Part shown: positions 1 through 36,641 of the stretch, in pieces
How positions within the stretch are numbered: position 1 is the first letter of the stretch
Layout of the letters: every line of letters begins with the position of its first letter
Origin: a bacterium
GTDB taxonomy: Bacteria > UBA8248
Direction of reading: 5' to 3'
Assembly (NCBI GenBank): GCA_965221165.1
Contig: CBDCRP010000002.1
Coordinates: 864,001-928,000 of the forward strand
Length of the DNA: 64,000 bases
The notes under the pieces: model-generated
Databases searched by the model: none
What the model saw: the letters and a program-made list of their open reading frames with translations, nothing else
Told to the model about the DNA's origin: nothing
Program-made: the position numbers and the translations under genes

Positions 1-378
1 GAGCGTCTTGTCGTCCCTGAAACGATCGCAAATCTCCTCGACCAAATCCTGAAACGCCACTTCGCTGCCCACCGCGTCCTCGGCGCTCATGATTCCAAAC
101 AGCAAGAACGTGTGGATTCTCCTGGCAAGACCTGCAGGCGTGAAGCCGCCGGGCGCATTCGAGCCGATGGATGCGGCTTCCTCCCCGGCCCTCTCGCGCG
201 TCAGCACCCAGCCCCTGATTTGGGCGAGGCCATCGCTTGCCTCCCACCGGAAAAGGTCGAGGTATTTTCCCAGGTCGGCCGACCAGCGCTGATAGCTGTG
301 CACCCGCCCCGCTCCCGCCACACTCGATATTTCCGCCAAAATGGCGTCGCCAATTGCTCTGTATTGTGATTTAGCCAC
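1..378 (-). CDS. Phage tail-completion/terminator-like protein (runs off the left edge of the window)
   Basis: Not in the ORF track. Manual translation from GTG 378: MAKSQYRAIGDAILAEISSVAGAGRVHSYQRW...IRGWVLTRE...SEVAFQDLVEEICDRFRDDKTL, resembling Mu/D3112-type tail-completion proteins. Overlaps the stop of the upstream gp10-like gene. Confidence 0.65.
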   Translation of the reverse strand, partial: MAKSQYRAIGDAILAEISSVAGAGRVHSYQRWSADLGKYLDLFRWEASDGLAQIRGWVLTRERAGEEAASIGSNAPGGFTPAGLARRIHTFLLFGIMSAEDAVGSEVAFQDLVEEICDRFRDDKTL

Positions 379-880
379 CGATTCTCCTCGCAATCTCATC
401 AAGCAGTTCACGAATGCGCCCCTCGATGCGGCTTTGGTTTTCCTCGAAAGCGCGCGCGAACATGCGGCGTCCCGGTATCCCGCGCCGGGCGATCGCTCGA
501 GCAACGAGGAAGGACACCCTTTCGATATGCCCATCGGGCGGGTCCAGTTTGTGGACCACCCAGCGATACAGAGACGAACCCTCCCTCCAGGGCGGAATTC
601 TGCCGCCCGGCCGGCGTCCGAATTCCACGTACCTGGCGTAAGGGGTGCGCGAGGCGACCACGCCGCGCAACGCGCCTCGGCCCTCTCCTCTGATTTCGGT
701 GTAAATACTGCCCCTGAGGTTTCCGCTCGCGCCGATGGGCGTTCGCGTCATTACCTCGCGTCTGAGCATTTCGGTGACCTCGGCCATCGCCTCGTGCGCA
801 AGGCGAAAAATTTCCGCCTCCTCCCGGCCTCCGGACGGCAATTCCGCCAGGGCTTCAAGCGTTATATATCTACGAAACAC
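371..880 (-). CDS. HK97 gp10-like phage neck/tail-completion protein
   Basis: Motifs TPIGASGNLRGSI, YARYVEFG, IARRGIPGRRMFARAF; position after the head-tail adaptor. Confidence 0.8.
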   Translation of the reverse strand: MFRRYITLEALAELPSGGREEAEIFRLAHEAMAEVTEMLRREVMTRTPIGASGNLRGSIYTEIRGEGRGALRGVVASRTPYARYVEFGRRPGGRIPPWREGSSLYRWVVHKLDPPDGHIERVSFLVARAIARRGIPGRRMFARAFEENQSRIEGRIRELLDEIARRIGG

Positions 881-898
881 TTCGCCTCTCCTCCCCGC

Positions 899-1609
899 CT
901 AGCGATCCCCGGACGCGCCGTGCGTGAAGTATTCGCCGCGCCTCATCGAGAGGAGCCCGTCCCAATCGAGAGATGCGCCCGTGGGGCCCGCCACTTCGCC
1001 CTCCTTTTGGCCGATATGGGTTTGGTACTTGCGCTCGAGTTCTCGCGCGAGGCGCGTGTATTCCCTGGCCTTGTTCGGGTAATCCACCGAATCCGCCGCG
1101 AGGGTCGGGTTCGAGGATTGGGCGAAGCGGCGGGCCAGAAGGTGACAGCCCTCCGAGGCCGCCAGCCACGCCACGGCGGTCAAATCGTTTCCGGGAACGC
1201 TCGTCCGGGCGTCACCGGCCGTGTGCCCCAGCGTGTAGAACAGGCGAAGCTTCTTGCCCTTTTGCGGGGTGTGGTACAAAAGCCTGAACTTCTCCGCCGG
1301 TGTTCCTTTCCCGTAGATGGTCCAATAACTTCTTCTGAGATAGGAGGGCTTTCTCTCGCCCTGGGGGTATTCCACCGCCCGGACGATAGAAAGAGAATCG
1401 TCCCAGTCCCCGGGCAAGGGAAAATCAAAGGTGACGCCATCGCCTGCGAAATCGGCGAAAGAAGTCAGCGGCCTGTCCTTGCTGTAGCGCGCGAGCGCGG
1501 CGCTCACCAAATCGGCGTAATCCGCCTCCTCGACCCCGAACTCCTGGGGCAGCGCGCCCGCCTTCAACAAAATCTTCACCTCTTTGATGATCGTCTGCCT
1601 GCTGGCCAT
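899..1609 (-). CDS. Phage head-to-tail adaptor/connector-like protein
   Basis: Co-oriented 236-aa ORF with AGGAG RBS between the capsid and gp10-like genes; call rests mainly on synteny. Confidence 0.6.
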   Translation of the reverse strand: MASRQTIIKEVKILLKAGALPQEFGVEEADYADLVSAALARYSKDRPLTSFADFAGDGVTFDFPLPGDWDDSLSIVRAVEYPQGERKPSYLRRSYWTIYGKGTPAEKFRLLYHTPQKGKKLRLFYTLGHTAGDARTSVPGNDLTAVAWLAASEGCHLLARRFAQSSNPTLAADSVDYPNKAREYTRLARELERKYQTHIGQKEGEVAGPTGASLDWDGLLSMRRGEYFTHGASGDR

Positions 1610-1650
1610 TTCTGCTTCTCCTTTGCTCGCTCACCCGATATGGGCGGGTT

Positions 1651-1992
1651 CTAAGTCTTGAGCGTGAGCCTGGCCTCGAACGTGAACGAAGGCTCCTCAC
1701 CCCCCACCGACCACGCGAGCCTGAGCCAGGGGCCGATGTTCGCGAGCTTGACGAGGGTTTTTCCCACCGAGGTGATCTGCGCGGGCCTGGTATGGACGAA
1801 AAGGGGTCCATCGTCCGCCGGCCCGGCTTCCACCGCGAAATCAAGCGTGGGCGATGCTCCCGCAACCGCCGTCACGTCGATGAACAACAGCGCCTCGGTG
1901 AAGCGGCTCACCTCGAACGCCGTGCTGCCTCCCGCCGCGCCGCGTACCGCCGAGGGAGCGAGAACTATCGTGTGGGTTCGCCTGTCGGACAT
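1651..1992 (-). CDS. Small beta-rich virion protein (possible capsid decoration)
   Basis: MSDRRTHT... with AAAGGAG RBS directly downstream of the capsid gene; beta-strand-like composition. Confidence 0.55.
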   Translation of the reverse strand: MSDRRTHTIVLAPSAVRGAAGGSTAFEVSRFTEALLFIDVTAVAGASPTLDFAVEAGPADDGPLFVHTRPAQITSVGKTLVKLANIGPWLRLAWSVGGEEPSFTFEARLTLKT

Positions 1993-2026
1993 GGCTTCTC
2001 CTTTGAATGCGCAAACGGCCCGCGAA

Positions 2027-4159
2027 CTACGCGGGCGCTCCGCGATAGAAGCCGCGAAAGTCCAGGACGGCGCCGCCATAGACGTGTCTGATCTTGTAGC
2101 GAATCTTGTCGGCGCTGAATCCGCTGCCGGCAGAAGGGTTGTCCTCGATGAACAACTCGGGCTCCCGCATATCGTCCATGAAGCCGATTTCGATAGTGTC
2201 CATCAGGCTCGGGTCGGCGATCATGTACCAATCGTTCGCGTCGGTGAGTTCGGGCACCCACAAAGGCTCCATACCCAGGCGGTTGATGACGCTCGGCTGC
2301 GTGGAGTTCTCGCCCGCGACGACCTTGACGGACGACTGGGTGACGTCGAACGCCTCCTCGAGCAGTTCCGTGGGGTGAACCAGATATTTGGGCCGCGCCT
2401 GCGCCGCTGTCTCGACGCCCTCTTCCCCGTAAAACGTCTGCTGGCCCATCGCCTTGATCCCGGCGATGACGTTGTCATACGTCAGCGCGTTCGTGGAGGT
2501 GTTATTGTGGTTGGCGTGGAACAGCGCGTCCCCATCGTATATGTCCGTGTTGGCCGTGAGGAAATCGAACACGAAGCTGTTCAGGGTGCGCTGGGCCGCG
2601 CGGGCGAGGCGCTGGGGAATCATGCGAATCGCGCCCATGTCGTCGTTCTGGATCATCTCCCAGGTGAGGTCCTCCACCCCGCCGCGCTTGGCCACGGCGT
2701 AGGTCACCTCCTCATCCGTCGGGGAGGTCAGCGCCGGATAGGTGGCCTGTTCGGCGACCTTTTGCAAATCGCCGTAGCCGCCGACGCGCACCCGGCGATT
2801 CGTCCTGAAATCCTTGACGGGCGTCACGGAGGAGACGATTTTTTTCCACTGGTGGAATCTCTCGTCCCGGAAATCGCGCAACATGGCGCGGCGGATCGAA
2901 TCCCCGAACGCCTCTCCCCACGTGCTCGTCTGCAAGGAGGCCGAGAGGCGGCGCACTCCGTTCCAGTTCTCGGCGGCGCGATGATAGTGGAACGTCTCGG
3001 CAAAGAACTGGCGCGGGGTGAGCCGATGGCCCGTGAAATCCTGAAACGCCTCGCTCATGAAGCGATAGGGCCGCTCCCCGTCGACTACCTGATCGCGGGA
3101 ATTCCAAAGCCCGTCGAGGGCCGCCTTTTTCCTGTCCGCCTCATCGCGCATCACTTCCGCGCGTGCGCCGAACCCCCGAAGCGCGCCGCTCGCCGTGAGT
3201 TTTTCCAGCGTGGACGCCTCGATGCGAATCGCTTCTTCGATTTCCTCCTCCGTGAAGCTCCCGCCCCCGAATTGCGCGCGCATTTTCTCCTGAACCGCCT
3301 CGGGCAGTGTGGACGCCGCAAGTTTTTGCGCGAGCACCCGGCGCGACGCGGCCCCCTGGGTACTGGTTTCATTCTTCATGGCGCCTCCTCCATTTTCCTT
3401 GAAGTCCAGTTCGAGGCCCGCGTCTTCACAGGCCGCGAGGAGTTGTTGCGGCGTCCATCTGTCGCCGAGCCTATCGGCCGATGCGGGCGCCACGCTTTTG
3501 AGTTTTTTCCCCAGTTTTTCGAACATCTTCACCTCCGATACAGTGGAATGATTGGCGGCGAGACCCAGAATCCCGCCCCCGAGCTTGCCTTTGTGCACGA
3601 TGTCGACGGAATGGACCGCCAGAATTTTCTCGAAATGCAAAACGAGCCCCTCGCCCTCCTCTCGAAACTCCGCCCGGGCCATCACATCGAACGAAAACCC
3701 GAACGGCTCCTCGAGACCCCGGGCCAGCGCATCGTGCGCCAGCTTCTGGAACCACGCCGCCGAGCGCGAAACCGCGAACGTGCTCAAAAGCCCCTCCTCG
3801 CCCATGCGGACCTCGCGGTGCCAGCCGACCAGATCCTTGATGTCGGGGCCGCCCGACCCGGTGTGGTTCGCGAACGCCTGCGCGCCCTCGAACAAGGGAG
3901 CGGCCTCACGCAGAACATCCCGGGGCAGGAACCACTCCCCGTCCCTCGAATAGCCGGCCCGGGCGATCAGCACGTCGAAATCCCAGGCTTCACCCGGCGG
4001 CTGGGCTTCTTGCCCGATGGCGCGGATGAGGTGGCCATGCAGCCTGACGGGGTGAGAATCTTTTTGCGCTTCCGCGCCCGCCCATATGCGATTCATCCAT
4101 CTTTTCAAGGGAAACTCCTTTTCTCGTTGGTCTTTTCGGATTCCGGTTTCCGGCGGCAT
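2027..4159 (-). CDS. Fused prohead protease-scaffold-major capsid protein (Mu gpT/HK97-fold type)
   Basis: N-terminal protease motifs (FANH, GFSFD, HSVDIV); C-terminal capsid motifs (LTWEMIQNDDMGAI, YDGDALFHANHNN, KIRHVYGGAVLDFRGFY). True start may be TTG 4108 (AAGGAG RBS). Confidence 0.88.
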   Translation of the reverse strand: MPPETGIRKDQREKEFPLKRWMNRIWAGAEAQKDSHPVRLHGHLIRAIGQEAQPPGEAWDFDVLIARAGYSRDGEWFLPRDVLREAAPLFEGAQAFANHTGSGGPDIKDLVGWHREVRMGEEGLLSTFAVSRSAAWFQKLAHDALARGLEEPFGFSFDVMARAEFREEGEGLVLHFEKILAVHSVDIVHKGKLGGGILGLAANHSTVSEVKMFEKLGKKLKSVAPASADRLGDRWTPQQLLAACEDAGLELDFKENGGGAMKNETSTQGAASRRVLAQKLAASTLPEAVQEKMRAQFGGGSFTEEEIEEAIRIEASTLEKLTASGALRGFGARAEVMRDEADRKKAALDGLWNSRDQVVDGERPYRFMSEAFQDFTGHRLTPRQFFAETFHYHRAAENWNGVRRLSASLQTSTWGEAFGDSIRRAMLRDFRDERFHQWKKIVSSVTPVKDFRTNRRVRVGGYGDLQKVAEQATYPALTSPTDEEVTYAVAKRGGVEDLTWEMIQNDDMGAIRMIPQRLARAAQRTLNSFVFDFLTANTDIYDGDALFHANHNNTSTNALTYDNVIAGIKAMGQQTFYGEEGVETAAQARPKYLVHPTELLEEAFDVTQSSVKVVAGENSTQPSVINRLGMEPLWVPELTDANDWYMIADPSLMDTIEIGFMDDMREPELFIEDNPSAGSGFSADKIRYKIRHVYGGAVLDFRGFYRGAPA

Positions 4160-4207
4160 GCCGGAGGCCGCCGCCTCGGCGAAAAAGCCGGCGGATGCGA
4201 CGGCGAC

Positions 4208-4259
4208 AATCTAGGGCAAGGGGTCGTAAACACGGGCAGCGCAAATGCGGGGAAATGCG
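4208..4259 (-). promoter_or_regulatory. Module promoter 1 (capsid/head-tail): direct-repeat box plus -10 TAGATT
   Basis: + strand CGCAAATGCGGGGAAATGCG at 4240-4259 and AATCTA at 4208-4213; 26-bp gap. Confidence 0.8.
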
Positions 4260-4460: not shown

Positions 4461-5765
4461 GTGCATATCATGTGGGGCGTCGCTCAACCGGCCTTGAATT
4501 TCATCCAGAACCTCTCCTGGAACCATGTGATCGACATCGGGATCATGTGGTTTCTGCTCTATCAGGTCTACATCCGCTTCAAGGGCACCCAGGCGATGCG
4601 CCTTCTCGTGCGCGTGTTCGCGGTATGGCTCATCTACCTCGCCTCCCAAGCCGCGGGCCTACACCTGACCTCATTCCTGCTTTGGGCCATCTGGATCGCC
4701 GTGCTCATCCTGTTTCTCATCAATTTCCACGGAGAAATCCAAAAGATATTCTTTCAACTCAACCCGGTGCGCAGAATCTCCACCCTGCTGCGCCGGGCGA
4801 TGCGCATCCGCCTGCCGGACGAGAGGGTCGCCACCATCGCCGAATCCGCATTCTCCCTCGCCTCCAAGAGTCTGGGCGCCATCATCGTCGTGGAACGCCG
4901 GGATTTGACCGAAGCGCTGCTGAGCAGCCCGGGCGAGGAGATTGAGGCGGATATCCGGCCGGCGCTGCTTGAAACCATTTTCTTCAAGGGAGCGCCCTAC
5001 CACGACGGCGCCGCCGTGGTCCGCGAGAACAAGGTCTCGCGCGTGGGCTGCCTTTTGCCTCTTTCCGAGAACCGCGCCCTGCCGCCGGAGTTCGGCACCC
5101 GCCACAGGGCGGCGGTGGGCATCACGGAGCGCTGCGACGCCCTGGCGATCGTCATATCCGAGGAGCGGGGGGAGATCACCTGCGTGGAAGGCAGCCATGT
5201 AAAGACGATAGAACATGAGGAGGAACTCGCCTCCTGGCTCACCACGCGCCTGCGCGCGGCCCGCGAAGCGGGGCAAACGAAAGGACGCATATCGCTCGCG
5301 CAGGTTTTCGAGAACTGGAAGCCCAAGCTCGCCGCCCTGGCCGCCGTCATCTTCCTTTGGTCGCTCGGCGGGCAGGAACGTCAAAATCCGCAGAATTTTT
5401 TCCCGCAACTCGAAAGCAAAGTGGAAGAGGAGTTCCGGGTTCCGCTCCATTATTACAACATTCCCAGTGGCGTCATCCTGCCGGACGATTTGGCGAAAAA
5501 CATCAAAATTCGCATCAGGGGCAGGCGCGACCTGCTGAACTACATCGACGCCACCCGCCTGCGCATGAATGTGAACCTTGCCAAAATGACGCCCGGAGCG
5601 CATTCGCGCACGTTCTCCGGACGCGATATCGACCTGCCGAGCGGCCTCGAATTCCTGAGCGCGGAGCCAAAAACCATCCAGTTGAACCTCGCCAAAGCGC
5701 CTAGACCTGAGAAAATGACGAAATCGAGCGCTTCCGCTGAAACAAAAGAATCCTCGAATTTCTAA
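4461..5765 (+). CDS. dacA: Diadenylate cyclase (CdaA/DacA) fused to a C-terminal YbbR/CdaR-like domain
   Basis: Three N-terminal TM segments; HDGA and GTRHRAA catalytic motifs; TM plus YbbR-like C-terminus. Confidence 0.9.
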   Translation: MHIMWGVAQPALNFIQNLSWNHVIDIGIMWFLLYQVYIRFKGTQAMRLLVRVFAVWLIYLASQAAGLHLTSFLLWAIWIAVLILFLINFHGEIQKIFFQLNPVRRISTLLRRAMRIRLPDERVATIAESAFSLASKSLGAIIVVERRDLTEALLSSPGEEIEADIRPALLETIFFKGAPYHDGAAVVRENKVSRVGCLLPLSENRALPPEFGTRHRAAVGITERCDALAIVISEERGEITCVEGSHVKTIEHEEELASWLTTRLRAAREAGQTKGRISLAQVFENWKPKLAALAAVIFLWSLGGQERQNPQNFFPQLESKVEEEFRVPLHYYNIPSGVILPDDLAKNIKIRIRGRRDLLNYIDATRLRMNVNLAKMTPGAHSRTFSGRDIDLPSGLEFLSAEPKTIQLNLAKAPRPEKMTKSSASAETKESSNF

Positions 5766-8748: not shown

Positions 8749-8760
8749 AAGATAATACGC

Positions 8761-10784: not shown

Positions 10785-10937
10785 GGAACCAAAATTCCAG
10801 GTGATCGAAGCGCCAAAGTCCTACTGGATGGATATTAACGGGAGATTTCCCTAAGGCCTTGCCTTCGGTTAGAATGGGGCAAATTCTAAAGACGGGTGAA
10901 TTCGACCTCCCCGTACAATCTCTTACTGGAGGATGAC

Positions 10938-11492
10938 ATGAACGAAATGACGAAGGAAAAGGAGAAAATTCTCGTCTACGAACCCGTGGCGGAGGCTCCG
11001 GGCGCGAGCGCCGTCATGGCCGAGCGGCCCGAGAGCTTAAACGGCAAGAGCGTCGGTCTCATCAACAACACCAAGGATTTCACCGATGAGATTTTCGATG
11101 TGATGGGCGCCGCGCTTGAAAAACAGTTCCCCGGCGTGCGCGTCGTGCGCTACCGGAAAGAATCCGTGAGCGGCGCATCGCCCGCCCTCATGGAGCAGGT
11201 GGAAGGAGAGTGCGACGCCGTCGTATCCGCACTCGGCGACTGAGGCTCGTGCACGTCGTGGAGTATCCACGACAGCGTTGCTCTCGAGAAAAGAGGGCTG
11301 GCCACGGTCACCATCGTCACCGACGCATTCGAGAATTACGCGAAGCAGCTCACCAAGCTGCACAAGATGAACGAGCTTCCCCTCGTCGCACTTCCCCATC
11401 CCATTGCGGGCAGAAAGCGCGAGGAGGTGGATGAGATGTCGGCGAGAGCGAGCGAATTTCTGGCGCACGCCCTCACACAGGCGAGCGGCTGA
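10938..11492 (+). CDS. UGSC-family selenoprotein (UGA = Sec at 11241-11243)
   Basis: ...VVSALGD-U-GSCTSWSIHDSVALEKRG... continues in frame for 83 codons; SECIS-like hairpin at 11255-11273. Confidence 0.9.
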
Positions 11493-15738: not shown

Positions 15739-15790
15739 AATATAGGGGAGCAAAGCGGGGAACCATGACACGCAAATGCGGGGAAATGCG
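15739..15790 (-). promoter_or_regulatory. Module promoter 2 (terminase-portal): direct-repeat box plus -10 TATATT
   Basis: CGCAAATGCGGGGAAATGCG at 15771-15790 (20/20 identical to 4240-4259); AATATA at 15739-15744; 26-bp gap. Confidence 0.8.
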
Positions 15791-27082: not shown

Positions 27083-27637
27083 GTCTCGCCTTTCTGAAAA
27101 AAGGTTGGAATCACCGTCGGTGACATATTTAGGGATGGGAGGAATATAACCGAGGGGATGGGGCTAGTCCAGGTATGGAGGGGTGATTCAGCGAGAGCTT
27201 TTATGCCGGAGAATACGCTCTACGACTCTTACCTATTGGCAAAATCGCGCAGATGGGAATGTTGTGGCCAAGTAGATTGCTAAAGACATTTACAACTAAA
27301 TCACACCAATTTAAGAACAATTCCATAAACTGATTAATGCCCAACACAACATTTTGTAGATAAATGAGTTATTTTTGATTTTTATCCACAAAATGTGGTA
27401 TATTTTGAAACTTACTAGCCTTTGGAATGGGGCACCAAAGGATAGTAAGTTTAACGACAGACGAACTAACTGAAAACGTGAAGCAACATAAGATGTGGAT
27501 AAAGATTGAGTGCCTCCGATCTTCACCATCGAAGGCACTCATGCTGATGTGTTGCCGGGAGCATCAGCAACCGGGGGCAGATGGACAGGCCATTTCGCTT
27601 CTATTATCTGTCAACCCCGGCAATAGGAGGAAGGGAT

Positions 27638-27772
27638 ATAACCCCTTCCAAAGGCTCTGAAGATTACATTGTGATCTTCAGAAAATCTATTACCCTTCCG
27701 AATGGGAGAGTCATTCATGCCAGCGATTATGGCAAGGTGGCTTTCCCCATTCGAATTAAAAAGAAAGGGTAG
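27638..27772 (+). CDS. Small basic hypothetical protein (start uncertain)
   Basis: AGGAGG RBS 7 nt before ATA 27638 (alternative GTG 27671); ...VIFRKSITLPNGRVIHASDYGKVAFPI...; followed by a strong hairpin. Confidence 0.4.
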   Translation: MTPSKGSEDYIVIFRKSITLPNGRVIHASDYGKVAFPIRIKKKG

Positions 27773-27781
27773 TAGATGAGT

Positions 27782-27813
27782 GGGCATCGGGGAGTGGACA
27801 CTCCCCGATGCCC
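27782..27813. terminator. Perfect hairpin between convergent mini-ORFs
   Basis: GGGCATCGGGGAGTG-GA-CACTCCCCGATGCCC. Confidence 0.65.
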
Positions 27814-27816
27814 TAC

Positions 27817-27939
27817 TTATTTCGGAGCAATTTTTTTATCCGCCGCCTTGAACACGGCCTTAGCGATTTGCTGAGCCGTAGCAGGTATCCGTTCTATAAC
27901 GTTTTTTACTGGCCTGCCTGGTGGTTTAGCATTACTCAT
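27817..27939 (-). CDS. 40-aa mini-protein, copy 1
   Basis: MSNAKPPGRPVKNVIERIPATAQQIAKAVFKAADKKIAPK; paralog at 28811-28933. Confidence 0.6.
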   Translation of the reverse strand: MSNAKPPGRPVKNVIERIPATAQQIAKAVFKAADKKIAPK

Positions 27940-28179
27940 GAGACACCCCCACGTCGAATACCTTTTTTAGATATCCAATGTTCCTTTTATTGTAATTTTT
28001 TGAGGCGGATAGTTACATACGATGCAACGTGTTGCAAATGTAACCGAAATGAAATTTTTGTCAACAATATTTTCACGACTTTTCCACGCCTTATCCACAA
28101 GGCAATGGGTAACTTTCCGCCTAATTAAGTATATAATCCCCCAAATTTTTTTCAGTCGTACGCGGCCACTCGAAGCCAT

Positions 28180-28644
28180 TCAGGCGGCGACGGCTCTTGG
28201 CTCATCCAGCATATTGTGTTGGGCTGTGGGTTTCTTCACCGTCCTTACTTGCACATAGGGCCGATGCTCGTCTGCGTTTTTCTTTTCCATTCCTTCGGCT
28301 TCAATATCCCCTCGGCGCACTGCTTCGACGGCTTCAGCCCATTCTTGTTTCGTCTCTTCGCAGATTTCGTTGAAGAATGTCTCCACTCGCTGTTTGAACA
28401 TCGAGAAATCGTCGGCTTCCTCAGCCATGTCGAACAGGACGGACGTGTAGGTCCGCCGGAACGTGGAGAATGCCTCATCCTCGTTCTGTCCGGTCGCGGC
28501 GATTCCACCCGGCTGTATTCCGTACATCCATGTGGAATCATCCTCTTTCATCCCGAGGAGCGTTCCCATCATTTTCACATTCGCCACGAAGCCGTTTCCT
28601 TCCACCTTGTCCGAGAAGGTAAAAAAGAACGGAAACGCGCTCAT
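28180..28644 (-). CDS. Hypothetical protein with a HicB-like segment
   Basis: AAGGAG RBS; PGGIAATGQNEDEAF resembles the HicB partial RNase H fold; no intact HicA seen. Confidence 0.55.
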   Translation of the reverse strand: MSAFPFFFTFSDKVEGNGFVANVKMMGTLLGMKEDDSTWMYGIQPGGIAATGQNEDEAFSTFRRTYTSVLFDMAEEADDFSMFKQRVETFFNEICEETKQEWAEAVEAVRRGDIEAEGMEKKNADEHRPYVQVRTVKKPTAQHNMLDEPRAVAA

Positions 28645-28810
28645 GTCACTCTCCTTTTCGGTTTTTGAAAAACCTTATCTCCAGATAGACTAATCCATCT
28701 GTCTTATCCGTGTTTCAAATTCGTTATGATTGTTCCATTATTTGCCCTGAAGAACTTTTCTGTCAAGGAAGGTAATTTCAGGCGACAACGGGTCCAACCC
28801 TAAAAACTCC

Positions 28811-28933
28811 CTATTTTAATACAAGAATCTTCGTATTCGCCGCTCGATAGATGGCTTTAGCAATTTCTTGTGGCGACGCCGGGGCCGGTTGCACAACGTT
28901 CTTCACCGGACACCCCGGTGATTTGGTACTCAT
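28811..28933 (-). CDS. 40-aa mini-protein, copy 2
   Basis: MSTKSPGCPVKNVVQPAPASPQEIAKAIYRAANTKILVLK. Confidence 0.55.
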   Translation of the reverse strand: MSTKSPGCPVKNVVQPAPASPQEIAKAIYRAANTKILVLK

Positions 28934-29111
28934 TAGATGCCCCTTTGCCAAGCGAATGAATTCGACCGCCGTCTCACACAGCGCACCCTATTACATAACT
29001 TGTAGCACTTTGCAACTTTTCAGCACACTTTTTTCGCATTTTATCAACACAACCAAAGTTATATATTATTCCCTTTTTTACCAATCCTCCGGAATTTTCC
29101 GCCCCCCCCCA

Positions 29112-29683
29112 TCACTCGATGCGCTCCTCGAGCTTGCGCGTCGCCTCGGCGGTGAGTTCGCATATCTTCTCCATCACCTCGGGATGATCGCGGAGCGATT
29201 CGCGCACCTCGTTGACAATCGCCATCTTGGCGGCGGCGAACCCGTCCTCGTACTGAAGCCTGAGACGCTCGGCCGATATGCGGCTGTTCTCGAGCGTGTT
29301 CACCATCTTCGCGATTTTTTCGGGGGTCAAGCCCTCGAAGGATTTCCGTTCCATGTGCGAGACGGCCTCGACCGCCTGCGCCATCAGCATCCGCCGCGCG
29401 GCGGCGGCCACCTTCTCGCCCGGGTCCCTGCCCTCACCGTCGTAGGCCATGACTTCTTCGATCAGCTCATCCACCATGGCTTCGACCTGCTTACTCTTGC
29501 GGATGCCCTCGAGCAGGCGCCGTTGTGCCTGAATACGGAAGATATCTGCAGCGGCTCCCCGGTGGCGTTCTCGAAGGCCCGCGCCACTTCCTTGTAGGTC
29601 TTCCCCTCGGCGAGCATGGGATCGACGAACTTCTCCGCGTCGTATCGCTCGATTTTCGCACGGCGTCCCCGTCTTCTCTCCAT
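29112..29683 (-). pseudogene. Mu gp27/DUF3486-like putative small terminase with a 1-nt frameshift near 29523
   Basis: N-terminal MERRRGRRAKIE...TYKEVA...ISSVFRH in one frame; helical C-terminal RRLLEGIRKSKQ...LRDHPEVMEKI in another; coupled to the gp26-like gene. Confidence 0.65.
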
Positions 29684-30015
29684 CACAACTCTCCCACGAG
29701 GATGTCGGGCGACCCCGATACGGCTCCCTCGAGCAGGCCCCGCCCCCGGCGGGTGAGGTGGACCTCGTAGTCGGTGAGCAGGCGGCCGAAACCGCCCGGG
29801 GTGCGCTTTTCCACCAAGCCCCGCTCCGCCAGATCGTCCACGAAGGCCTCGAGCGTCTCCCGGCCGATGGGCGCGCCGTCCTCGTGGTGGCCCGCCTCGC
29901 GCAGCGCGCTCCACAGAAGAAGGCTGCCGACGCTCGATTTCTCCTGAAAGGCATCCTGGTAATAAAGCGTCTTCAATATGTCGCCGCGCAGAACGCGGGC
30001 CGCCAACTCGTTCAC
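29683..30015 (-). CDS. Mu gp26-like winged-helix protein
   Basis: LRGDILKTL...LAERGLVE...LTRRGRGLLEG pattern; lies immediately before the DUF3486-like gene, as in Mu-like phages. Confidence 0.7.
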   Translation of the reverse strand: MNELAARVLRGDILKTLYYQDAFQEKSSVGSLLLWSALREAGHHEDGAPIGRETLEAFVDDLAERGLVEKRTPGGFGRLLTDYEVHLTRRGRGLLEGAVSGSPDILVGEL

Positions 30016-30152
30016 GCCAAAACACCTCCTGGATAACTTTGACCCTCAAACGCCGGACGCGGCACGCCTGGATTCGGCGTCTCTCGCGGATGATGAAATA
30101 CGCCCCGGGCGTCTCGGCACGCCCCTCCCCCGCGCGCGGCGGGGATTCGGGC

Positions 30153-30204
30153 AATATAGGGTGCGGCGCAGGTTCCGGCGGCCCCGTAAATGCGGGCAAA
30201 TGCG
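30153..30204 (-). promoter_or_regulatory. Module promoter 3 (gp26/small terminase): direct-repeat box plus -10 TATATT
   Basis: CGTAAATGCGGGCAAATGCG at 30185-30204; AATATA at 30153-30158; 26-bp gap. Confidence 0.8.
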
Positions 30205-30267
30205 GGGGCCTGTGCGTTGAGAAAAAAAACCAGCAAGCCCACAATGCTCCCCGGGGAGGACGCTTCG

Positions 30268-30666
30268 ATGCGCGCGCGCGACTGGAAAATCACCGCCACG
30301 GCCGCCATCTGCACGCTGTGGTTCTTGTGGCTGCCCGATTCGCCGGCCTCAGGCCACGGGGAGGAGGAAATCCTCCTGTTCGCCTATCTGGCGGAAGAGC
30401 AAAACCTCCTGAGAATCTCGACCGCCATCGTGGGCGGCATCATCCTGGCGATGGGCGCCTTTATCACCCAGCAATCGCGCGCCGAGGCGAGAGAGGGAGC
30501 AGGAGCCGAATACTCGGGCTTCAAGGTGATGGCGCCGGGGCTGCTCGTCACCTGTCTGGGCGTCGGCGTGTTGTTCACGGCCGCCTTCATCCTGCCCGAG
30601 CAGATCAAGATCGTGCACGATCATCCTCTGGGCCAATCCGAGACAAAGGCTCACGAGAGGCGCTGA
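30268..30666 (+). CDS. Hypothetical membrane protein
   Basis: GGAGG RBS, three hydrophobic segments; opposite strand, interrupting the phage modules. Confidence 0.6.
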   Translation: MRARDWKITATAAICTLWFLWLPDSPASGHGEEEILLFAYLAEEQNLLRISTAIVGGIILAMGAFITQQSRAEAREGAGAEYSGFKVMAPGLLVTCLGVGVLFTAAFILPEQIKIVHDHPLGQSETKAHERR

Positions 30667-30720
30667 ACCACCCGCGCCCGGCAAACCGCGCCGGTGAATT
30701 TTCTGCGACCGGGAACCCTC

Positions 30721-31143
30721 TCACCTCGCTTTTCCCGTCAATTTCTCGACGGTGCGCAGAGCGCCGAGACCCAGCATCCCCAGGGTGAGCTCTAAAAGCC
30801 CCTCCGCCGAGACGGGATAGGGAACCAGCGCGCCGCCCATCAGCACCTGCCGCGTCCAGAGCCAGGCGCCCAGGGCGTACTGGGGGATGAAATAAAAGGC
30901 GAGCGACACGCCGCAGGTCCACAATATGAACGGCCTCCCCCCGGCGACGAAGGCGCTGCGGTGCGCCGCCTCGATTTTGTTTATCTCGTTCTGGGCTTCC
31001 AAGGGGCGCATCATCAGCTTTTGTTTTATCGCCTCCGCCGCCCGTCTCTCATCGGGCGTTTCGACGAACTTGTCGATGACGTTGGCGACGCCCTCGGCCG
31101 CCGTAACGACGCCTCCGCCGATGAGTTTTTCGAAAAAAGCCAT
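30721..31143 (-). CDS. 3TM holin (GTA_holin_3TM-type family)
   Basis: MAFFEKLIGGG...IEAAHRSAFVAGGRPFILW...LGMLGLGALRTVEK; start overlaps the lysozyme stop. Confidence 0.85.
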   Translation of the reverse strand: MAFFEKLIGGGVVTAAEGVANVIDKFVETPDERRAAEAIKQKLMMRPLEAQNEINKIEAAHRSAFVAGGRPFILWTCGVSLAFYFIPQYALGAWLWTRQVLMGGALVPYPVSAEGLLELTLGMLGLGALRTVEKLTGKAR

Positions 31144-31556
31144 CACGCGCTCCTCATCATCCCGGCGACCCTGCCCGCCCGGGCGGGCAACTCGCGCGCG
31201 TAATCGGAATCGAGCGCCTCCGCAGCCGCTCCCTCGTAATCGCCCTCCGCAAGCGCCGCCCACATTTTCCTGAAACCAAGAAGGCTCGGCACGCCCATGT
31301 TGTAGGCCATGTTCAAAACCGCGCGCTGTGCGCCGGGCCTTAAATTCGCATATACCCCGTCGACGGAGGAGCGCTCGATTTCTTCGGCCATCAGCCCCAG
31401 GCGATGCCGAAGAAGCAGTTCGGCTTCGGCCTCGGATATACCGTCCTCGATAAGCGTCCCGTAGCCGATGGTCTGCTTGCCCCTGGTGTCCAAATACACC
31501 CTGGGCTTGAAACCCTCCTCTTGCTTGATCTCCTCGATCAGTTCGTCCGTGAGCAT
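31143..31556 (-). CDS. Phage lysozyme/endolysin (GH24, T4-like)
   Basis: EEG...YLDTRGKQTIGYG catalytic region; NMAYNMG; FRKMWAAL. Confidence 0.9.
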   Translation of the reverse strand: MLTDELIEEIKQEEGFKPRVYLDTRGKQTIGYGTLIEDGISEAEAELLLRHRLGLMAEEIERSSVDGVYANLRPGAQRAVLNMAYNMGVPSLLGFRKMWAALAEGDYEGAAAEALDSDYARELPARAGRVAGMMRSA

Positions 31557-31774
31557 GGCTTCTCCTCATTCATCAGCGAATCCTCGCCGTCATTTGCCTC
31601 TCTCATCAGACGCCGCAGCGACGCCGCTCCCTTGTGAGCGCCCACGCGGCCCGCGTAGGCCTGGCTCGAGGCCAGGATGCGTCCGTTTTTCGCCCTGACG
31701 CGGAAACGATGCCGCCCGGATTCGTCCTCGAAAATCTCGATGGGACGCCGTCCCGATCTTTTCACGGCGCGCAT
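31538..31774 (-). CDS. DUF1508/YegP-like small protein
   Basis: IEIFEDESGRHRFRVRAKNGRILASSQAY. Confidence 0.75.
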   Translation of the reverse strand: MRAVKRSGRRPIEIFEDESGRHRFRVRAKNGRILASSQAYAGRVGAHKGAASLRRLMREANDGEDSLMNEEKPCSRTN

Positions 31775-31977
31775 GTCGAAACCCCCAGGTAAATCCCCAA
31801 ACCCAAAAGACACGCGGCGACGGCGGCGAGGCGAAAGGCAGCATGCCTGCCGTTCACCCAGCGCCACACAATGGAGCCCGTTCGCTTTTCGAATTCATTT
31901 TTCTCGGACATGATTTTCCTCTCTCTTCAGGGGGAATCCCGCGCGCCGCCCTTAGGCTGCGCGCCTCGACCCGGGAG

Positions 31978-32029
31978 ATCCTAGGCCTTGATGACACCGG
32001 GCCTATGACGCAAAATGCGGGCAACTGCG
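31978..32029 (-). promoter_or_regulatory. Module promoter 4 (lysis): direct-repeat box plus -10 TAGGAT
   Basis: GCAAAATGCGGGCAACTGCG at 32010-32029 (third TGCG at 32036-32039); ATCCTA at 31978-31983; 26-bp gap. Confidence 0.72.
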
Positions 32030-32183
32030 GGGTGATGCGCCGCTCGGCCCTCGGATGTGCGCGCAAAATCCCGCGGTGTTTCAACCCAAGGGGAGTAGTG
32101 CTAAAATGCGCATCGCCCGAGGGTCGTATGAATACAAAAGGGCGCGCGCCCTCGCGCACGCCGCCGCACACAGGAGATGAACC

Positions 32184-32804: not shown

Positions 32805-33203
32805 ATGAAAAGACGCATCTGCGCCGGCGTGGCGTTCATGTTCTTCCTATCCGGATGCGCAGGTTCAGGGCCGAAACCGGTGGCGCGCTATGCGCTTACG
32901 GATGAGAAGCGCAACTGCGCGTCGATTAAGGCGGAAATCAAGGCGAATAAAACCGAAATCGCGAAAAAGAACACCGAGCGAAAGAACAAGACGAACAAAA
33001 ACCTCACCCTGGGCGCTGCGGGCGTGTTCCTTATCGTGCCGTGGTTCTTCATGGACTTGAAGGGCAAGGAAGCGGGCGAGACCGAAGCGCTCGAGCGCCG
33101 CAACGCCGCACTTCGCCGGATCGCCTTCACCAAGGGCTGCATCGCGCCGCTTCCCATCGTCACCCATCAGAGAAAACCGAAAACGGGGAAGAAAGCGAAA
33201 TAG
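32805..33203 (+). CDS. Hypothetical lipoprotein
   Basis: Lipobox LSGC; conserved-looking PWFFMDL segment. Confidence 0.7.
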   Translation: MKRRICAGVAFMFFLSGCAGSGPKPVARYALTDEKRNCASIKAEIKANKTEIAKKNTERKNKTNKNLTLGAAGVFLIVPWFFMDLKGKEAGETEALERRNAALRRIAFTKGCIAPLPIVTHQRKPKTGKKAK

Positions 33204-33365
33204 GAGTAAGACTCAAAAACAAACCAAGCAAGCCATGAACGAGACGGCCCGCGCTTATCTGGAATTTCCGTCTTTTAAGGAATATAATCCATATTTTAGA
33301 AAAACCCTGGGCCAAATAGTTCGGAGCGTGGACAAGAGATATTTCCAACACCTGGGATCAATAGC

Positions 33366-34310
33366 GTGAATACCGACGTAACCATCCACTCATCAAACCT
33401 TAACGCCACAGGAGAGAGTTCCTGCCGCCGAACACGGCTTTCATCACCCTCACAAATCGGCTACCTCAGAGTAGACGATCCTGAGGGCCCTCCCTTTGGT
33501 TCCATAGGGAGGTCTCTACTCATACACGGGGATGCCCATCAAGCACTTGATTTGTTACCGGATGAATCCGTACAAACTGTCGTTACCTCCCCACCGTACT
33601 GGTCGCTTCGGGATTATGAGGTGGAGGACCAGATCGGACGTGACGACGCTTTGGAGGATTATACAAACAGCATCGTGACAACTTTTGGAAAACTAAGACG
33701 CGTTCTCCGAACTGATGGAACGGTGTGGTTGAACATTGGAGACGCATACACGTCGGGAAACCGCCGCTACCGAGCACCGGACAAAAAGAATCGCGCTCGT
33801 GCAATGAAAGTCAGGCCGCCGACTCCGGGCGGACTGAAACCGAAAGACCTGATCGGAGTTCCGTGGCGATTGGCGTTTGCGCTGCAAAACGCCGGGTGGT
33901 GGCTTCGTTCGGAAGTGATCTGGCACAAGCCGAACGCGCATCCGGAATCGGTTCGGGACCGGCCTACGAAAGCACACGAGACATTGTTTCTACTTTCTCA
34001 GAACCAAAATTATTATTACGACGTTGGAGCCGTCCGAGGGCCGAATAATCGGAGGCTCCGCACTGTTTGGGACATTCCTACGGAACCTAGAAAGAACGGA
34101 CATGTGGACGATCACCCAGCGATCATGCCAATGTCGCTCGCAAGCAGATGCGTCAGCATTACCACCAAACCAGAAAGCGTTGTGCTCGATCCCTTCGCCG
34201 GATCGGGAACAACTTTGCTCGCCGCGCAAAAACTCGGTCGAAAATGGGTGGGTGTCGAACTCAAAGCCTCATTCGTGAACCTGATAGAGCGACGAATGAA
34301 CGGCAAATGA
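33366..34310 (+). CDS. N4-cytosine DNA methyltransferase, beta class (M.SmaI/M.Cfr9I-like)
   Basis: TSPPYW motif IV before DPFAGSGT motif I; RPPTPGGLKPKDLIGVPWRLAFAL. Confidence 0.9.
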   Translation: MNTDVTIHSSNLNATGESSCRRTRLSSPSQIGYLRVDDPEGPPFGSIGRSLLIHGDAHQALDLLPDESVQTVVTSPPYWSLRDYEVEDQIGRDDALEDYTNSIVTTFGKLRRVLRTDGTVWLNIGDAYTSGNRRYRAPDKKNRARAMKVRPPTPGGLKPKDLIGVPWRLAFALQNAGWWLRSEVIWHKPNAHPESVRDRPTKAHETLFLLSQNQNYYYDVGAVRGPNNRRLRTVWDIPTEPRKNGHVDDHPAIMPMSLASRCVSITTKPESVVLDPFAGSGTTLLAAQKLGRKWVGVELKASFVNLIERRMNGK

Positions 34311-35053
34311 CTCTCCAAGAGCTTAAATCTAAACTAGACCAATTATCACCAGTCAAAGTGCAGTTCGTGGCGAAGGTTATCGAGGCCCTTACAAATCCGC
34401 CACAAGTAAGCATCAAAAAGGGAACTTGGATTACCCACTCCGCGGATTGGATGGAGTATTTCGGTCTCGCGCTTTCGTTGCATCACGGAACAACCACAGA
34501 ACCTCTGGACCGGACCAGGTTCGAGACCGTATTCAGGAATGCCTGTACTTCCGTAAACTGGAAAGTCGATGAACCGGGAAGCCCGACCAGGCGCTTTGTC
34601 GACCTTGAAGTTCAAGCAGGCGATGATCTTAAAAGACGAATTTCATTGAAATCGACCTCTGCAAAAAACTTGTCAGAAACGAGAGTTCATATTTCTAAAC
34701 TGACCGAAGCAGCATGGATACAGGATCTGCGCAGAGCGCAAGAACGACGCAACCAAACGCTCAGTTTGTTCAAAGAGTATACGAGCGCCGTAGATGCAAT
34801 CGTTATGTTGAGGGCATTTAGGGAGGGAAACAATATCCCGCATCGCTACCAGCTTATTGAGATTCCGACTGCGATTTTCGATTCAGTTCAAAAAGCTCCG
34901 GTGGAAACTTTCAGGAATGACGCGCCGGTTATCGAATCCAATATGAAAGGAGTTACCGTCGCTCGGGTTGCGATAGATCGTTCCGATGCAAAAATTACAG
35001 TCCGTAGTATCCTCTTGAGCGCGTGCGTTGTTCATGCGGAATGGCTTACCTGA
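34307..35053 (+). CDS. Type II restriction endonuclease, SmaI-like
   Basis: 248 aa, ATGA-coupled to the MTase; FG..L..HH, ISLKS, HISK, YQLIEIP, C.VH..W resemble R.SmaI (recalled from memory). Confidence 0.7.
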   Translation: MTLQELKSKLDQLSPVKVQFVAKVIEALTNPPQVSIKKGTWITHSADWMEYFGLALSLHHGTTTEPLDRTRFETVFRNACTSVNWKVDEPGSPTRRFVDLEVQAGDDLKRRISLKSTSAKNLSETRVHISKLTEAAWIQDLRRAQERRNQTLSLFKEYTSAVDAIVMLRAFREGNNIPHRYQLIEIPTAIFDSVQKAPVETFRNDAPVIESNMKGVTVARVAIDRSDAKITVRSILLSACVVHAEWLT

Positions 35054-35127
35054 CCAACCCTACGTGTTAACCAGTGAAAAATTACTTAACCCATCGCCTC
35101 GCCGCCATGTAACGTAAAGGGCCGCGC

Positions 35128-35979
35128 ATGCCGAAAAACCACGCAGGAAACTTTCTTCTTAAATCCTTGCTCATCGCCGTCTTGGGAGTCTGCTTCCTGG
35201 GCGTCCCCCGCGCAGAGGCAGCGGAATGCTCCTACGGCCCCTACACGGGGCGCTGCCGCGACATCGGGCTCATGCGGTCGGTCAAGCGCAATTCGGAAAA
35301 ACTCACCTCCGCGCGCTCTATACTCTGGGTGGAAAAACACTATCTCTCCCCTGATGCGGCGAGCGATTTGCACCGGCGGATAGATGCAGGCATAGAGGCC
35401 GTCGAGAAGTTTCTGGGCTTTAAGTTCTCACGCGCGGCCTACGGGCAGGAGAAATTAGAATTCTTCGTCCATAGCAGGCGCGCGCCCTCACACACCATAA
35501 CCGGCTACCAACCACGAGAATACATGCACCCGGTCGTGTTTCTCTCTTTCGCCAAAAGAAAAAGAACGCCCTACCTGCACGAGACGGTCCACATCATCGC
35601 GTGGGACTGGAACGCGCTGTGGCTCAAGGAGGGCCTCGCCGTTCACTTGAACGATCGCTTAAGCGGCTACCCCGCCTTTCCTAATTTCGGGGAATCGGTG
35701 GACGATTTCGCGAGCCGCGTCCTCAGGCGCGAGTTCCCTCCCGCGACGAAAGCGCTCGACCTCATGGGCGAAAACGGAGTGCCCGGATTCGAGAACAGGC
35801 GCGTGCGGCGCATGTTCTACATACTCGCAGGCTCCTACGTCGGCTATCTTCTCGATAAGATGGGCGTAAAGAAACTCATGCGGGTCTACGCCGCAAAGGA
35901 CACCAAGGCCGCCATTCTCAAGGAGACGGGAAAACCCGCCTGGCGGTGGAAGGAGGCGTGGCTGGGTGAGGTGAGGTAG
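35128..35979 (+). CDS. Secreted protein with HExxH metallopeptidase motif
   Basis: Signal peptide; HETVH...WLKEGLA gluzincin-like motif. Confidence 0.7.
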   Translation: MPKNHAGNFLLKSLLIAVLGVCFLGVPRAEAAECSYGPYTGRCRDIGLMRSVKRNSEKLTSARSILWVEKHYLSPDAASDLHRRIDAGIEAVEKFLGFKFSRAAYGQEKLEFFVHSRRAPSHTITGYQPREYMHPVVFLSFAKRKRTPYLHETVHIIAWDWNALWLKEGLAVHLNDRLSGYPAFPNFGESVDDFASRVLRREFPPATKALDLMGENGVPGFENRRVRRMFYILAGSYVGYLLDKMGVKKLMRVYAAKDTKAAILKETGKPAWRWKEAWLGEVR

Positions 35980-36360
35980 TCAATCCCGCATGCCGCCGAA
36001 TTTCCATTCCAGATCCAGGGGAAATTCCTCCTGCATCTTCTCGACGTAGGCGAGCACGTCCTCGCGGCGAAAGCGCGCGCTCTTGAACGAGGGATGGTTT
36101 TCGGGCCGCCTTTCACCCGCGCGCGGGGGCGGGCGGCGCAGGTAGACGGGCCGGAGGCAGGGACTCTCGCTCGCGCAGTCCTCGGCGATGATGGCGTCGA
36201 GCGTACGGTAGCTCTTATAGCCCAAAACCCTGGCCAGCATGGGTTTTGTGAGAAACGCCTCTTCCTCGAGAATCCGGCGCGGGGTTCTCGGGTCCGGCGG
36301 GGATTGTTTCGCCCTTCTCTCGCGCCGCTTGCGCACGGGGGCCTTCTTTGAGGGCGGCAT
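35980..36360 (-). CDS. Excisionase/AlpA/MerR-like HTH DNA-binding protein (candidate activator of the phage modules)
   Basis: FLTKPMLARVLGYKSYRTL...ARFRREDVLAYVE is an HTH_17-type pattern; ATG 36360 overlaps the upstream stop. Confidence 0.65.
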   Translation of the reverse strand: MPPSKKAPVRKRRERRAKQSPPDPRTPRRILEEEAFLTKPMLARVLGYKSYRTLDAIIAEDCASESPCLRPVYLRRPPPRAGERRPENHPSFKSARFRREDVLAYVEKMQEEFPLDLEWKFGGMRD

Positions 36361-36641
36361 CAGCAAAGCGCCTCGGCGAGCGGCAGAACGCGCACGTCGC
36401 GCCTGCGCGCTCTCTTCGCCCGGATGAGCGCATCGGCGCGCGCGCGGGCGGATTCCACATTCGGGAAGAGGAGGCGCACGCACCTCTCGCGATTTAAGTC
36501 CCGATAGACGAGCAGCACGCCCCCTTCGGGCACGCCGAAACCCTCATCCACCAGATCGGCCAGCGTCCGCTCGTGCGTTCCGATGAAGGAGACGGCCTCG
36601 TTCATGACGCCTCTCCCGGACATCCGCATGGTGATATGCAT
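36360..36641 (-). CDS. Hypothetical protein coupled to the HTH gene
   Basis: GGAGGAGG RBS; TGATG overlap with the downstream gene. Confidence 0.55.
   Translation of the reverse strand: MHITMRMSGRGVMNEAVSFIGTHERTLADLVDEGFGVPEGGVLLVYRDLNRERCVRLLFPNVESARARADALIRAKRARRRDVRVLPLAEALC

Follow-up and report, generated by a model that had tools for sequence, protein, structure and literature searches.

We have analyzed a 64,000-nt stretch of DNA (hereafter the window) from a bacterium of the phylum Nitrospinota, corresponding to positions 864,001 to 928,000 of GenBank contig CBDCRP010000002.1 (G000:C2:864001-928000 in our numbering), in which an earlier note, made from the letters alone, had pointed out scattered phage-particle genes. 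Judging from the sequence, these genes are part of a host-maintained, phage-derived particle gene set, formed by five co-promoted modules located at two distant genomic places, and the particle system is most likely similar to a gene transfer agent (GTA). Our preferred reading is that of a domesticated late region of a Mu-like siphophage acting as a GTA of independent origin. We give this reading, in which we infer co-activation, particle formation, packaging of host DNA and its transfer, a probability of about 0.6. It builds on the gene content of the modules, their dispersal, conservation, purifying selection, shared promoter and coordinated loss.

The assembly of the genome (G000) has three contigs (58 kb, 1.48 Mb, and 2.15 Mb). 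For the genus comparison, G000 was set against the genomes of 22 other species, with 18 more genomes from outside the genus (41 in total). Synteny and promoters were compared in 60-kb regions of G000 and six complete relatives (G001, G002, G006, G007, G019 and G020). Ratios of nonsynonymous to synonymous substitution rates (dN/dS) are pairwise NG86 values of G000 vs G007, G002, G020 and G001, and gene families were assigned by Pfam and PHROG profile matches.

Shared promoter, conservation and coordinated loss

The four modules of the window were named A to D by increasing position, and all their features lie on the minus strand. Each module is found downstream of the element CGCAKTT-SCC-CGCATTT, followed after exactly 29 nt by TAGATT, TATATT, TATATT and TAGGAT, respectively, with starts at 4259, 15790, 30204 and 32029. 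Promoters A (4208-4259, with an AT-rich stretch before it) and B (15739-15790) share CGCATTT-CCC-CGCATTT and N29, ending in TAGATT and TATATT, and were both kept in 7/7 genomes. Promoter C (30153-30204; CGCATTT-GCC-CGCATTT, N29, TATATT) was found in G000, G007, G002 and G020 at up to three mismatches, and was not found in G001, G006 or G019 at that threshold. Promoter D (31978-32039) has three repeats in 10-bp phase (CGCATCA-CCC-CGCAGTT-GCC-CGCATTT), the 29-nt spacer and TAGGAT at 31983-31978; its motif, spacing and -10 were kept in 7/7 genomes and its spacer sequence varies.

With up to three mismatches, the seven 60-kb regions gave 29 regular-expression matches representing 25 distinct promoters, the remaining four being a shifted register of promoter D. 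All 25 have the orientation of the modules and sit immediately in front of them; the N29 distance is fixed, and the spacer sequence has diverged. No -35-like hexamer was common to the module promoters. A tandem heptamer operator in 10-bp phase, at a set distance from a -10 and with no -35 consensus, has the layout of an activator-dependent promoter.

A genome-wide scan for the motif, which the earlier note had proposed for finding further tail genes, revealed a fifth module on contig C3. A non-repeat copy of the motif at C3:1159111, with TATATT at the right distance, precedes seven open reading frames (ORFs) of 381, 177, 403, 313, 233, 127, and 563 aa (module E, E1 to E7; C3:1159193-1166085). 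The consensus of the five modules is CGCATTT-N3-CGCATTT-N29-TAnAnT. Module E and its left flank were the same in 8/8 relatives, with the promoter upstream of E1 in all eight, and in G007 the module lies about 1.7 Mb from modules A-D.

The layout of the window was conserved as well. The order of the modules and of the interleaved host genes matched the window in 6/6 complete relatives, with G006 missing some host genes between modules B and C, and G001 missing the module C gene C1. In the genus comparison, the genes for the capsid, the N-terminal part of the large terminase (TerL-N), E1 and E7 were each single-copy in 20/22 genomes, as was C1 in 19/22. Across the module genes dN/dS was 0.04-0.57, at a dS of 0.2-0.75 that is in the same range as that of the adjoining host genes. 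The GC content of the modules (0.605-0.653) can be compared with 0.59-0.62 for the adjoining host genes and 0.587 for the genome. Trees of 13 taxa, built from concatenated module A proteins and from flanking host proteins, had all their deep, well-supported splits in common, and trees of seven and nine taxa gave the same picture. By these comparative data, the host lineage passes the modules on vertically and keeps them under purifying selection.

Two species of the genus, G008 and G009, are missing all five modules at the syntenic sites, with the flanking and interleaved host genes kept. G009 still has a stretch of 26 aa of the portal, promoter B in decayed form and, weakly, a trace of the module D gene for DUF1508. 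The host-protein tree places G008 as sister to G001 and G006 (support 99/99) and G009 as sister to G002 and G020 (97/98). Since the two species sit in different well-supported clades, the losses were separate events.

These results bear on most of what the earlier note had claimed. Its four minus-strand phage modules were recovered by Pfam and PHROG matches at the positions it gave (the gene it called gp26/DUF3486 being Mu-gp27-like, below threshold), and family assignment agreed that host genes lie between them (DAC, LLMs, ABC transporter, CocE and others; described below). The same promoter was indeed present on all four, with motif, exact 29-nt spacing and -10. The comparisons it had suggested came out in favor of a host-maintained particle rather than a decaying prophage: orthologs and synteny in 19-20/22 genus genomes and 6/6 complete relatives, dN/dS well below 1 with host-like dS, near congruence of phage-gene and host-gene trees, and a genome-wide motif scan that turned up the extra tail module. 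The note had named a chimeric assembly as a risk; with an identical layout in six complete genomes from other species, this is excluded.

The note had also seen no integrase, MuA/B or replication gene, which holds around the modules and, for MuA/MuB, genome-wide. No integrase, transposase or replication gene was found in or beside the modules, and tblastn with queries from the Microcystis phage Mae-JY22 found no MuA, MuB, Gam or MuF homolog in the whole G000 genome (E 1e-4). The non-structural ORFs of the prophages of G027 and G032 had no counterpart near the G000 modules by tblastn, and for the early genes of the G027 element no homolog was found in G000. A PF02914 profile search of the genome gave no match, but its controls likewise gave none.

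The nearest sequenced phage is the Mu-like Mae-JY22 (PP438414.1), whose capsid fusion has 32% identity at 97% query coverage and whose homologs of the portal, A3, A4, A5 and tail tube are collinear with the G000 set. In G027, a class-level relative, the genes are contiguous: portal, MuF, capsid, A3, A4, A5, tube, chaperone, tape-measure protein (752 aa), E1 and E3, adjoining MuA/MuB homologs. Less scattered arrangements also occur in other genera. Locus L055 (another genus of the family) has an unbroken run of capsid to tube, tape measure and E1; in L051 a distance of 1.5 kb separates the portal from the capsid gene, and in L058 only a luciferase-like monooxygenase (LLM) gene and a diadenylate cyclase (DAC) gene lie between portal and capsid. 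In L051, the capsid gene, a putative tape-measure operon and E1 each follow a variant promoter, CGAATTT-CCC-CGAATTT, N29 and TAGATT or TACATT. As each operon of these less scattered genera already has a variant copy, the promoters are ancestral phage late promoters that were kept; the suggestion of the earlier note that the fragments had gained matching promoters therefore did not hold. The break points between modules follow operon boundaries, and the half-site that differs between genera would imply a dedicated activator co-evolving with its sites.

Gene content of the modules

Module A encodes head and tail proteins. Its first gene codes for a 710-aa fusion of head-maturation protease, scaffold and major capsid protein (2027-4159; PF25209, 8e-46; phrog_29592, 7.3e-135; phrog_4523 "major head and protease protein", 5.3e-52), with 78-95% identity within the genus and a dN/dS of 0.10-0.23. 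It is followed by A2 (142 aa, 1651-2079), which occupies the head-completion position, matched no Pfam or PHROG family, and was kept in 6/6 relatives (dN/dS 0.29-0.57). A3 (236 aa, 899-1609) is a head-tail connector candidate: it is 29% identical to the Mae-JY22 gene adjoining the capsid gene of that phage, and is collinear with it and with genes of the G027 and G032 prophages (dN/dS 0.24-0.31). A4 (371-880) resembles the HK97 gp10 tail completion or neck protein (PF04883, 8.1e-8; phrog_5, 7.4e-17). A5 (window 1-534), a structural protein of 229 aa whose gene ends left of the window at C2:863845, is homologous to and collinear with counterparts in Mae-JY22 and the G027 and G032 prophages. Further left lie the tail tube gene A6 (C2:862633-863772; PF18906, 4.5e-11; phrog_290, 2.3e-20; dN/dS 0.15-0.20) and, in the position after the tube, the 107-aa ORF A7 (C2:861979-862302), beyond which the module ends at host genes of F420 biosynthesis. 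The module A proteins other than capsid and tube had dN/dS values of 0.2-0.57.

Module B contains a large terminase of the GpA type, divided over two ORFs. The ATPase half (14629-15687) matched PF05876 (8.8e-18) and positions 25-339 of the 576 of phrog_675 (8.8e-52), and the nuclease half (13985-14632) matched positions 357-549 of the same profile (2.4e-10). The ATG of the nuclease half overlaps the stop codon of the ATPase ORF (ATGA), and this two-ORF form, with the (A/G)TGA overlap and the frame change, was identical in 7/7 genomes. Both halves had a dN/dS of 0.16-0.26. We have considered a pseudogene with a frameshift in TerL and rejected it, given that the form is the same in seven genomes and that open frames of about 365 aa recur across the genus. 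In L058 the two halves are about 60 nt apart. A split large terminase is unusual, and its conservation in seven genomes may bear on a relaxing of packaging specificity. The portal gene (12612-13988; phrog_10963, 1.3e-45) had a dN/dS of 0.12-0.20, and its product is 39% identical to the Mae-JY22 portal.

The two genes of module C encode C1 and a small-terminase (TerS)-like protein. C1 (110 aa, 29683-30015) has no Pfam family and is possibly a winged-helix DNA-binding protein: its nearest ESM Atlas clusters having a family belong to winged helix-turn-helix families, with scores below 0.9, so that this assignment is a lead only. No other gene of the set is as conserved: its identity within the genus is 83-94%, and its dN/dS 0.07-0.19. 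Among the 22 other genomes of the genus, it was not found in G001, G008 or G009. The TerS-like gene (29112-29683) is similar to Mu gp27/DUF3486. The match to PF11985, obtained with its intact G007 ortholog, remained below the threshold (3.7e-5, 24.6 bits; cut-off 28), and the ortholog aligned to positions 16-154 of the 173 of the Mu gp27 profile, meaning that the N-terminal part is kept. The gene is an intact 190-aa ORF in G006, G019, G007, G002 and G020.

The TerS-like gene of G000 carries a frameshift between its N-terminal helix-turn-helix part and its C-terminal part. Logan contigs cover 29454-29859 gap-free; they stem from runs X1 and X2, which share a single sample and may be the source of the assembly itself. 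Since the contigs of both runs reproduce the 1-nt deletion, it is real in that population. Contig joints with skips of 5521, 15015 and 1247 nt had sides of 21-22 letters, and were treated as artifacts of repeats or other organisms. For window 28900-32100, no RNA run was listed as containing the sequence.

Module D is a lysis cassette. The first ORF after promoter D (49 aa, 31762-31911) has a hydrophobic C-terminal half according to its sequence, and is followed by a small DUF1508 (YegP-like) protein (31538-31777; PF07411, 2e-9). The gene of the latter was present in G007, G002 and G020 (dN/dS 0.44-0.52), and was not found in the other three of the six relatives (G001, G006, G019). The lysozyme-like endolysin (31143-31556; phrog_7, 6.9e-21) was kept in 6/6 relatives, with a dN/dS of 0.17-0.27. 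The start of the holin gene overlaps the endolysin stop. This holin (30721-31143) is a protein with three transmembrane segments, matching PF11351 GTA_holin_3TM (2e-12, 48.1 bits, cut-off 24.8) and phrog_3427 (2.9e-23), with a dN/dS of 0.04-0.18, or 0.04-0.10 in the three closest comparisons.

Module E would provide the tape measure and tail tip. The last ORF, E7, had tape-measure PHROG matches (5.4e-7 and 4.5e-6) and two GEAGPE motifs, which we take to be linked to tape-measure proteins. We have modeled E3 with AlphaFold2 (26 sequences in the alignment, mean pLDDT 66.8). The 14 best PDB matches of the model were all hub proteins of the tail tip or baseplate, from siphophages and one prophage, including those of T5 (7zqp_b, 3.5e-8), DT57C, JBD30, Chi and lambda and the RcGTA virion chain 6tba_8A (6.7e-5), and the predicted structure suggests that E3 is a tail-tip hub. 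The E1 model (pLDDT 66.4) had no Foldseek match at E 0.001, the best being the JBD30 baseplate chain 8rk3_D (4.1e-3). VIA-align returned CBM32-like jelly rolls with a Z of 8.4, which is inside the noise range stated for the tool, and the E1 sequence matched none of 50,697 phage records. E1 is a candidate distal tail protein on account of its gene position behind the tape measure in G027 and L055. In contiguous relatives the order is tape measure, then E1, then E3, and for this reason we read module E as the tail-tip part of the same ancestral phage. The dN/dS of E1-E7 was 0.09-0.47. A second copy of operator and promoter precedes E7 in G007, G022, G001 and G006, with none in G000. The 267-nt gap between E6 and E7 (C3:1164127-1164394) holds a hydrophobic ORF of 40 aa.

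The genes between the modules are host genes, coding for DAC, a cytidine deaminase, a dehydrogenase, two LLMs, a UGSC-family protein, an adenylate cyclase, ABC transporter parts, an M24 peptidase and two S15/CocE peptidases. The UGSC-family ORF (10896-11243; PF24696, 3.8e-15) adjoins the two LLM genes, and a tRNA-Sec gene lies at C2:1080614-1080710 of G000. In G009, the DAC ortholog (G009:C4:422587-423885, equivalent to window 4461-5765) has one in-frame TGA in the match. Islands of low GC content were observed at 27100-29100 (0.455) and 33200-35100 (0.50), vs 0.587 for the genome. The ORFs at 28180-28644 and 34148-35053 are probably recent insertions, since among the six relatives compared they have counterparts in G007 alone.

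Copies of the operator outside the modules

The whole-genome scan of G000 returned 22 strict matches to the motif, and 51 with up to two mismatches. About 46 of these 51 near-matches sit outside the modules. Thus, the shared promoter motif described in the earlier note stands as far as all modules carry it, and is not private to them. The exact operator 17-mer has 19 copies in G000 and 16-52 copies in 18 of the genomes that carry the modules. Two further carriers deviate: the 17-mer occurs once in G019, whose module promoters have variant operators, and is missing in G015. No exact copy was found in the module-less G008 and G009, nor in any of the 18 genomes outside the genus, and the reversed motif, used as a control, gave zero matches in all 41 genomes.

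Most of the near-matches (34 of 51) belong to one dispersed family of non-coding repeats of 350-450 bp. The unit consists of the operator, a -10-like TATGGN at 28-29 nt, a GC-rich stretch, an A-tract array, an AT-rich block and often a second operator. In the array, a unit of 10-11 nt with the pattern GTGAAAATA recurs five to seven times. Examples are found at C2:683840-684290, C2:422918-423330 and C3:1019290-1019741 of G000, and also on the 58-kb contig C1, whereas the window has only the operator copies at 4259, 15790, 30204 and 32029. A blastn search with the repeat DNA gave 46 matches in G000, 35 in G007, and zero in each of G001, G008 and G009. The genes downstream of the repeats are ordinary ones of the host (cyclase, TctC receptors, MnmA, SCO1, aceE). 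The aceE gene has its own conserved TGGTATATT promoter; the repeat there is an insertion, decayed in G002 and G009.

We have examined several other roles for the motif and rejected them. The 300 nt upstream of each of the 50 tRNA/tmRNA genes contained none of the 51 sites, and 20 loci around motif copies gave no Rfam match at E 0.01. The copies at C2:3674 and C3:106770 are not beside the only 16S site found (C3:1869301), which disfavored an rRNA promoter. These two copies are in regions that are 86% identical to each other, where an operator-like repeat is just upstream of a canonical TTGACT-N17-TAGAAT. A role of the dispersed copies as regulator promoters was not borne out either, the 10 downstream ORFs scanned being five ordinary enzymes or receptors and five without a family, with no regulator among them. 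Finally, C1 was not supported as the activator of the modules, since it was not found in G001 and the ESM Atlas matches are leads only.

Alternative readings and known systems

In the preferred reading, the late region of a Mu-like siphophage would have been passed on vertically in this genus and in neighboring genera. The early region (transposase, replication, repressor) would have been lost, host genes would now separate the late operons, and every operon would have kept its ancestral late promoter. One activator would turn on all five modules together in a fraction of the cells, tailed particles would be assembled, and the terminase would fill them with whatever DNA the cell holds, before holin and endolysin release them. 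The packaged DNA would be chromosomal, given that the element has no replication of its own and its genes do not sit together in a single piece of headful size. As for self-carriage, which is missing in a GTA, the set consists of five modules, with E on another contig, and no replication, integration or transposition module was found.

The selection and co-regulation evidence is silent on the cargo or role of the particle. The set might thus be selected for something other than gene transfer: a particle for killing competitors, a programmed lysis that releases DNA, or a means of decoying or warding off related Mu-like phages. Constraint is strongest in the lysis cassette (for the holin, dN/dS is 0.04-0.10 against the three closest genomes), and related active Mu-like prophages are present in the same class, both of which would fit such a role. 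We consider it to be on the unlikely side, given that both terminase halves, the TerS-like protein and the portal are under purifying selection and would be needless for a DNA-free killing particle; to our knowledge, known tailocins have no head and packaging genes. A broken-up Mu-like prophage decaying by rearrangement, useless to the host, would account for the missing early region, for the frameshift in the TerS-like gene of G000 and for the two species that lost everything. It is scarcely credible when every tested marker is an open single-copy gene in 19-20 of the 22 species, dN/dS is far below 1 at a dS of 0.2-0.75, and operators and spacing are conserved while the spacers diverged. Moreover, in G009, where selection ceased, the genes are gone and the promoter decayed.

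The dispersed copies of the motif raise another explanation, namely that the modules serve the motif-bearing repeats (about 40 copies), as satellites or as packaging or regulatory sites, in a selfish partnership rather than a host function. The exact motif tracks the modules (16-52 copies in 18/20 carriers, zero in the module-less species and outside the genus), 34/51 of the G000 near-matches are in one repeat family with an A-tract array of ~10-nt units and a second motif copy, and this repeat DNA is found in G000 (46 matches) and G007 (35) and not in G008 or G009. However, the repeats are short (350-450 bp), non-coding and upstream of ordinary host genes, and aceE, one of these genes, is served by a conserved promoter of its own. 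In G001, 24 copies of the motif occur, yet no blastn match to the repeat, and neutral decay of the 17-mer after loss of the activator would equally leave G008 and G009 with zero exact copies. At the modules, the constant spacing of 29 nt to the -10 speaks for transcription rather than packaging. Taken together, we regard this explanation as quite improbable. We have also considered a broader proposal, in which the set would be a sixth-lineage GTA origin, in Nitrospinota, with the operator copied to 16-52 sites, many of them in the A-tract repeat. A network of sites across the genus would then be under the control of the particle system, or would feed it, and would vanish when the particle genes are lost, either a regulon of a lytic subpopulation or packaging-initiation sites that spread DNA sampling. 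This proposal seems clearly unlikely to us.

Several observations weigh against a domesticated late region acting as a GTA. TerL is of the GpA family, which, as in lambda, typically packages from cos sites, and not by the headful mechanism expected for random DNA. The structural proteins A2, E2 and E4-E6 are without an assigned role. The obvious candidate for the activator is C1, yet in G001, where 24 motif copies and the other modules persist, no C1 was found. The TerS-like gene of G000 is frameshifted by the 1-nt deletion near 29519, in this genome only, so that G000 itself may be defective or may make a truncated TerS. The phage-gene and host trees disagree on the position of G000 relative to G007 and G022 (L034 and L050; 100/99 vs 90/93) and on weakly supported tips, and because of the conflict over G000 some recombination is possible. 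Lastly, the TerS of known GTAs has no DNA-binding domain according to a review (PMC11841831). This is a reported tendency in GTAs and not a definition, and the intact orthologs of the TerS-like protein depart from it by keeping their N-terminal part.

Few independent GTA origins are known, and most of the mechanistic work concerns alphaproteobacterial RcGTA-type elements. If the preferred reading is true, domestication of a transposable Mu-like phage can reach the same multilocus, single-switch architecture, and GTA-type exchange would extend to Nitrospinota, a phylum known almost only from metagenomes. The two independent losses of the five modules, together with every exact operator copy, form a natural experiment that could be used to find the activator and to gauge the contribution of the set. 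Supplementary files aside, our literature search found, among the papers listed, no report of a Nitrospinota GTA or of a vertically inherited GTA-like prophage in this phylum.

Among known systems, VSH-1 of Brachyspira hyodysenteriae, BaGTA, Dd1 and VTA are comparable in being prophage-like gene sets without self-transmission, and differ in belonging to unrelated lineages and hosts. For VSH-1, a divided genome is reported, going by reference titles in PMC11841831.

The present set resembles Mu and Mae-JY22 in the order of lysis genes, DUF3486, TerL, portal, capsid, connectors, tube, tape measure and tail tip. Phage Mu has four C-dependent late promoters, and thus several late operons, each with its own activator-dependent promoter. 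However, the present set has no transposase A/B, Gam, MuF or repressor, its TerL is not of the Mu type, and its genes are, by the comparative evidence, vertically inherited host genes. The operator is here a direct repeat, whereas the Mu C sites are a dyad. The hallmarks of a Mu-like transposable prophage (A, B, ends and repressor beside the late region) were missing in G000; in G027, A/B homologs are beside the late region.

The likeness to RcGTA lies in head, tail and lysis genes of phage origin that the host maintains at several separate loci. For RcGTA, at least 24 genes in five loci are described (PMC5026251), with expression under one activator class and GafA as the direct activator (PMC6363796, PMC9638019). 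The holins of both belong to PF11351, and the E3 model matched the RcGTA virion chain 6tba_8A with its hub fold (E 6.7e-5), which is a generic one. RcGTA homology (g1-g15) was not what we found: the best matches were to Mu-like and HK97-type PHROGs, PF25209, PF05876 and PF18906, in line with the observation of the earlier note that a Mu-type head and a GpA-type terminase set these genes apart from RcGTA. Going by these matches, the present set is not a member of the RcGTA family. The hosts of RcGTA are Alphaproteobacteria, whereas the present set is found in Nitrospinota, is of Mu-like siphophage ancestry with a protease-capsid fusion and a GpA-type TerL in two ORFs, and has a TerS-like protein that keeps its N-terminal part. 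The core cluster of RcGTA is contiguous over about 15 kb, whereas here the core head-to-tail cluster is itself interrupted by host genes.

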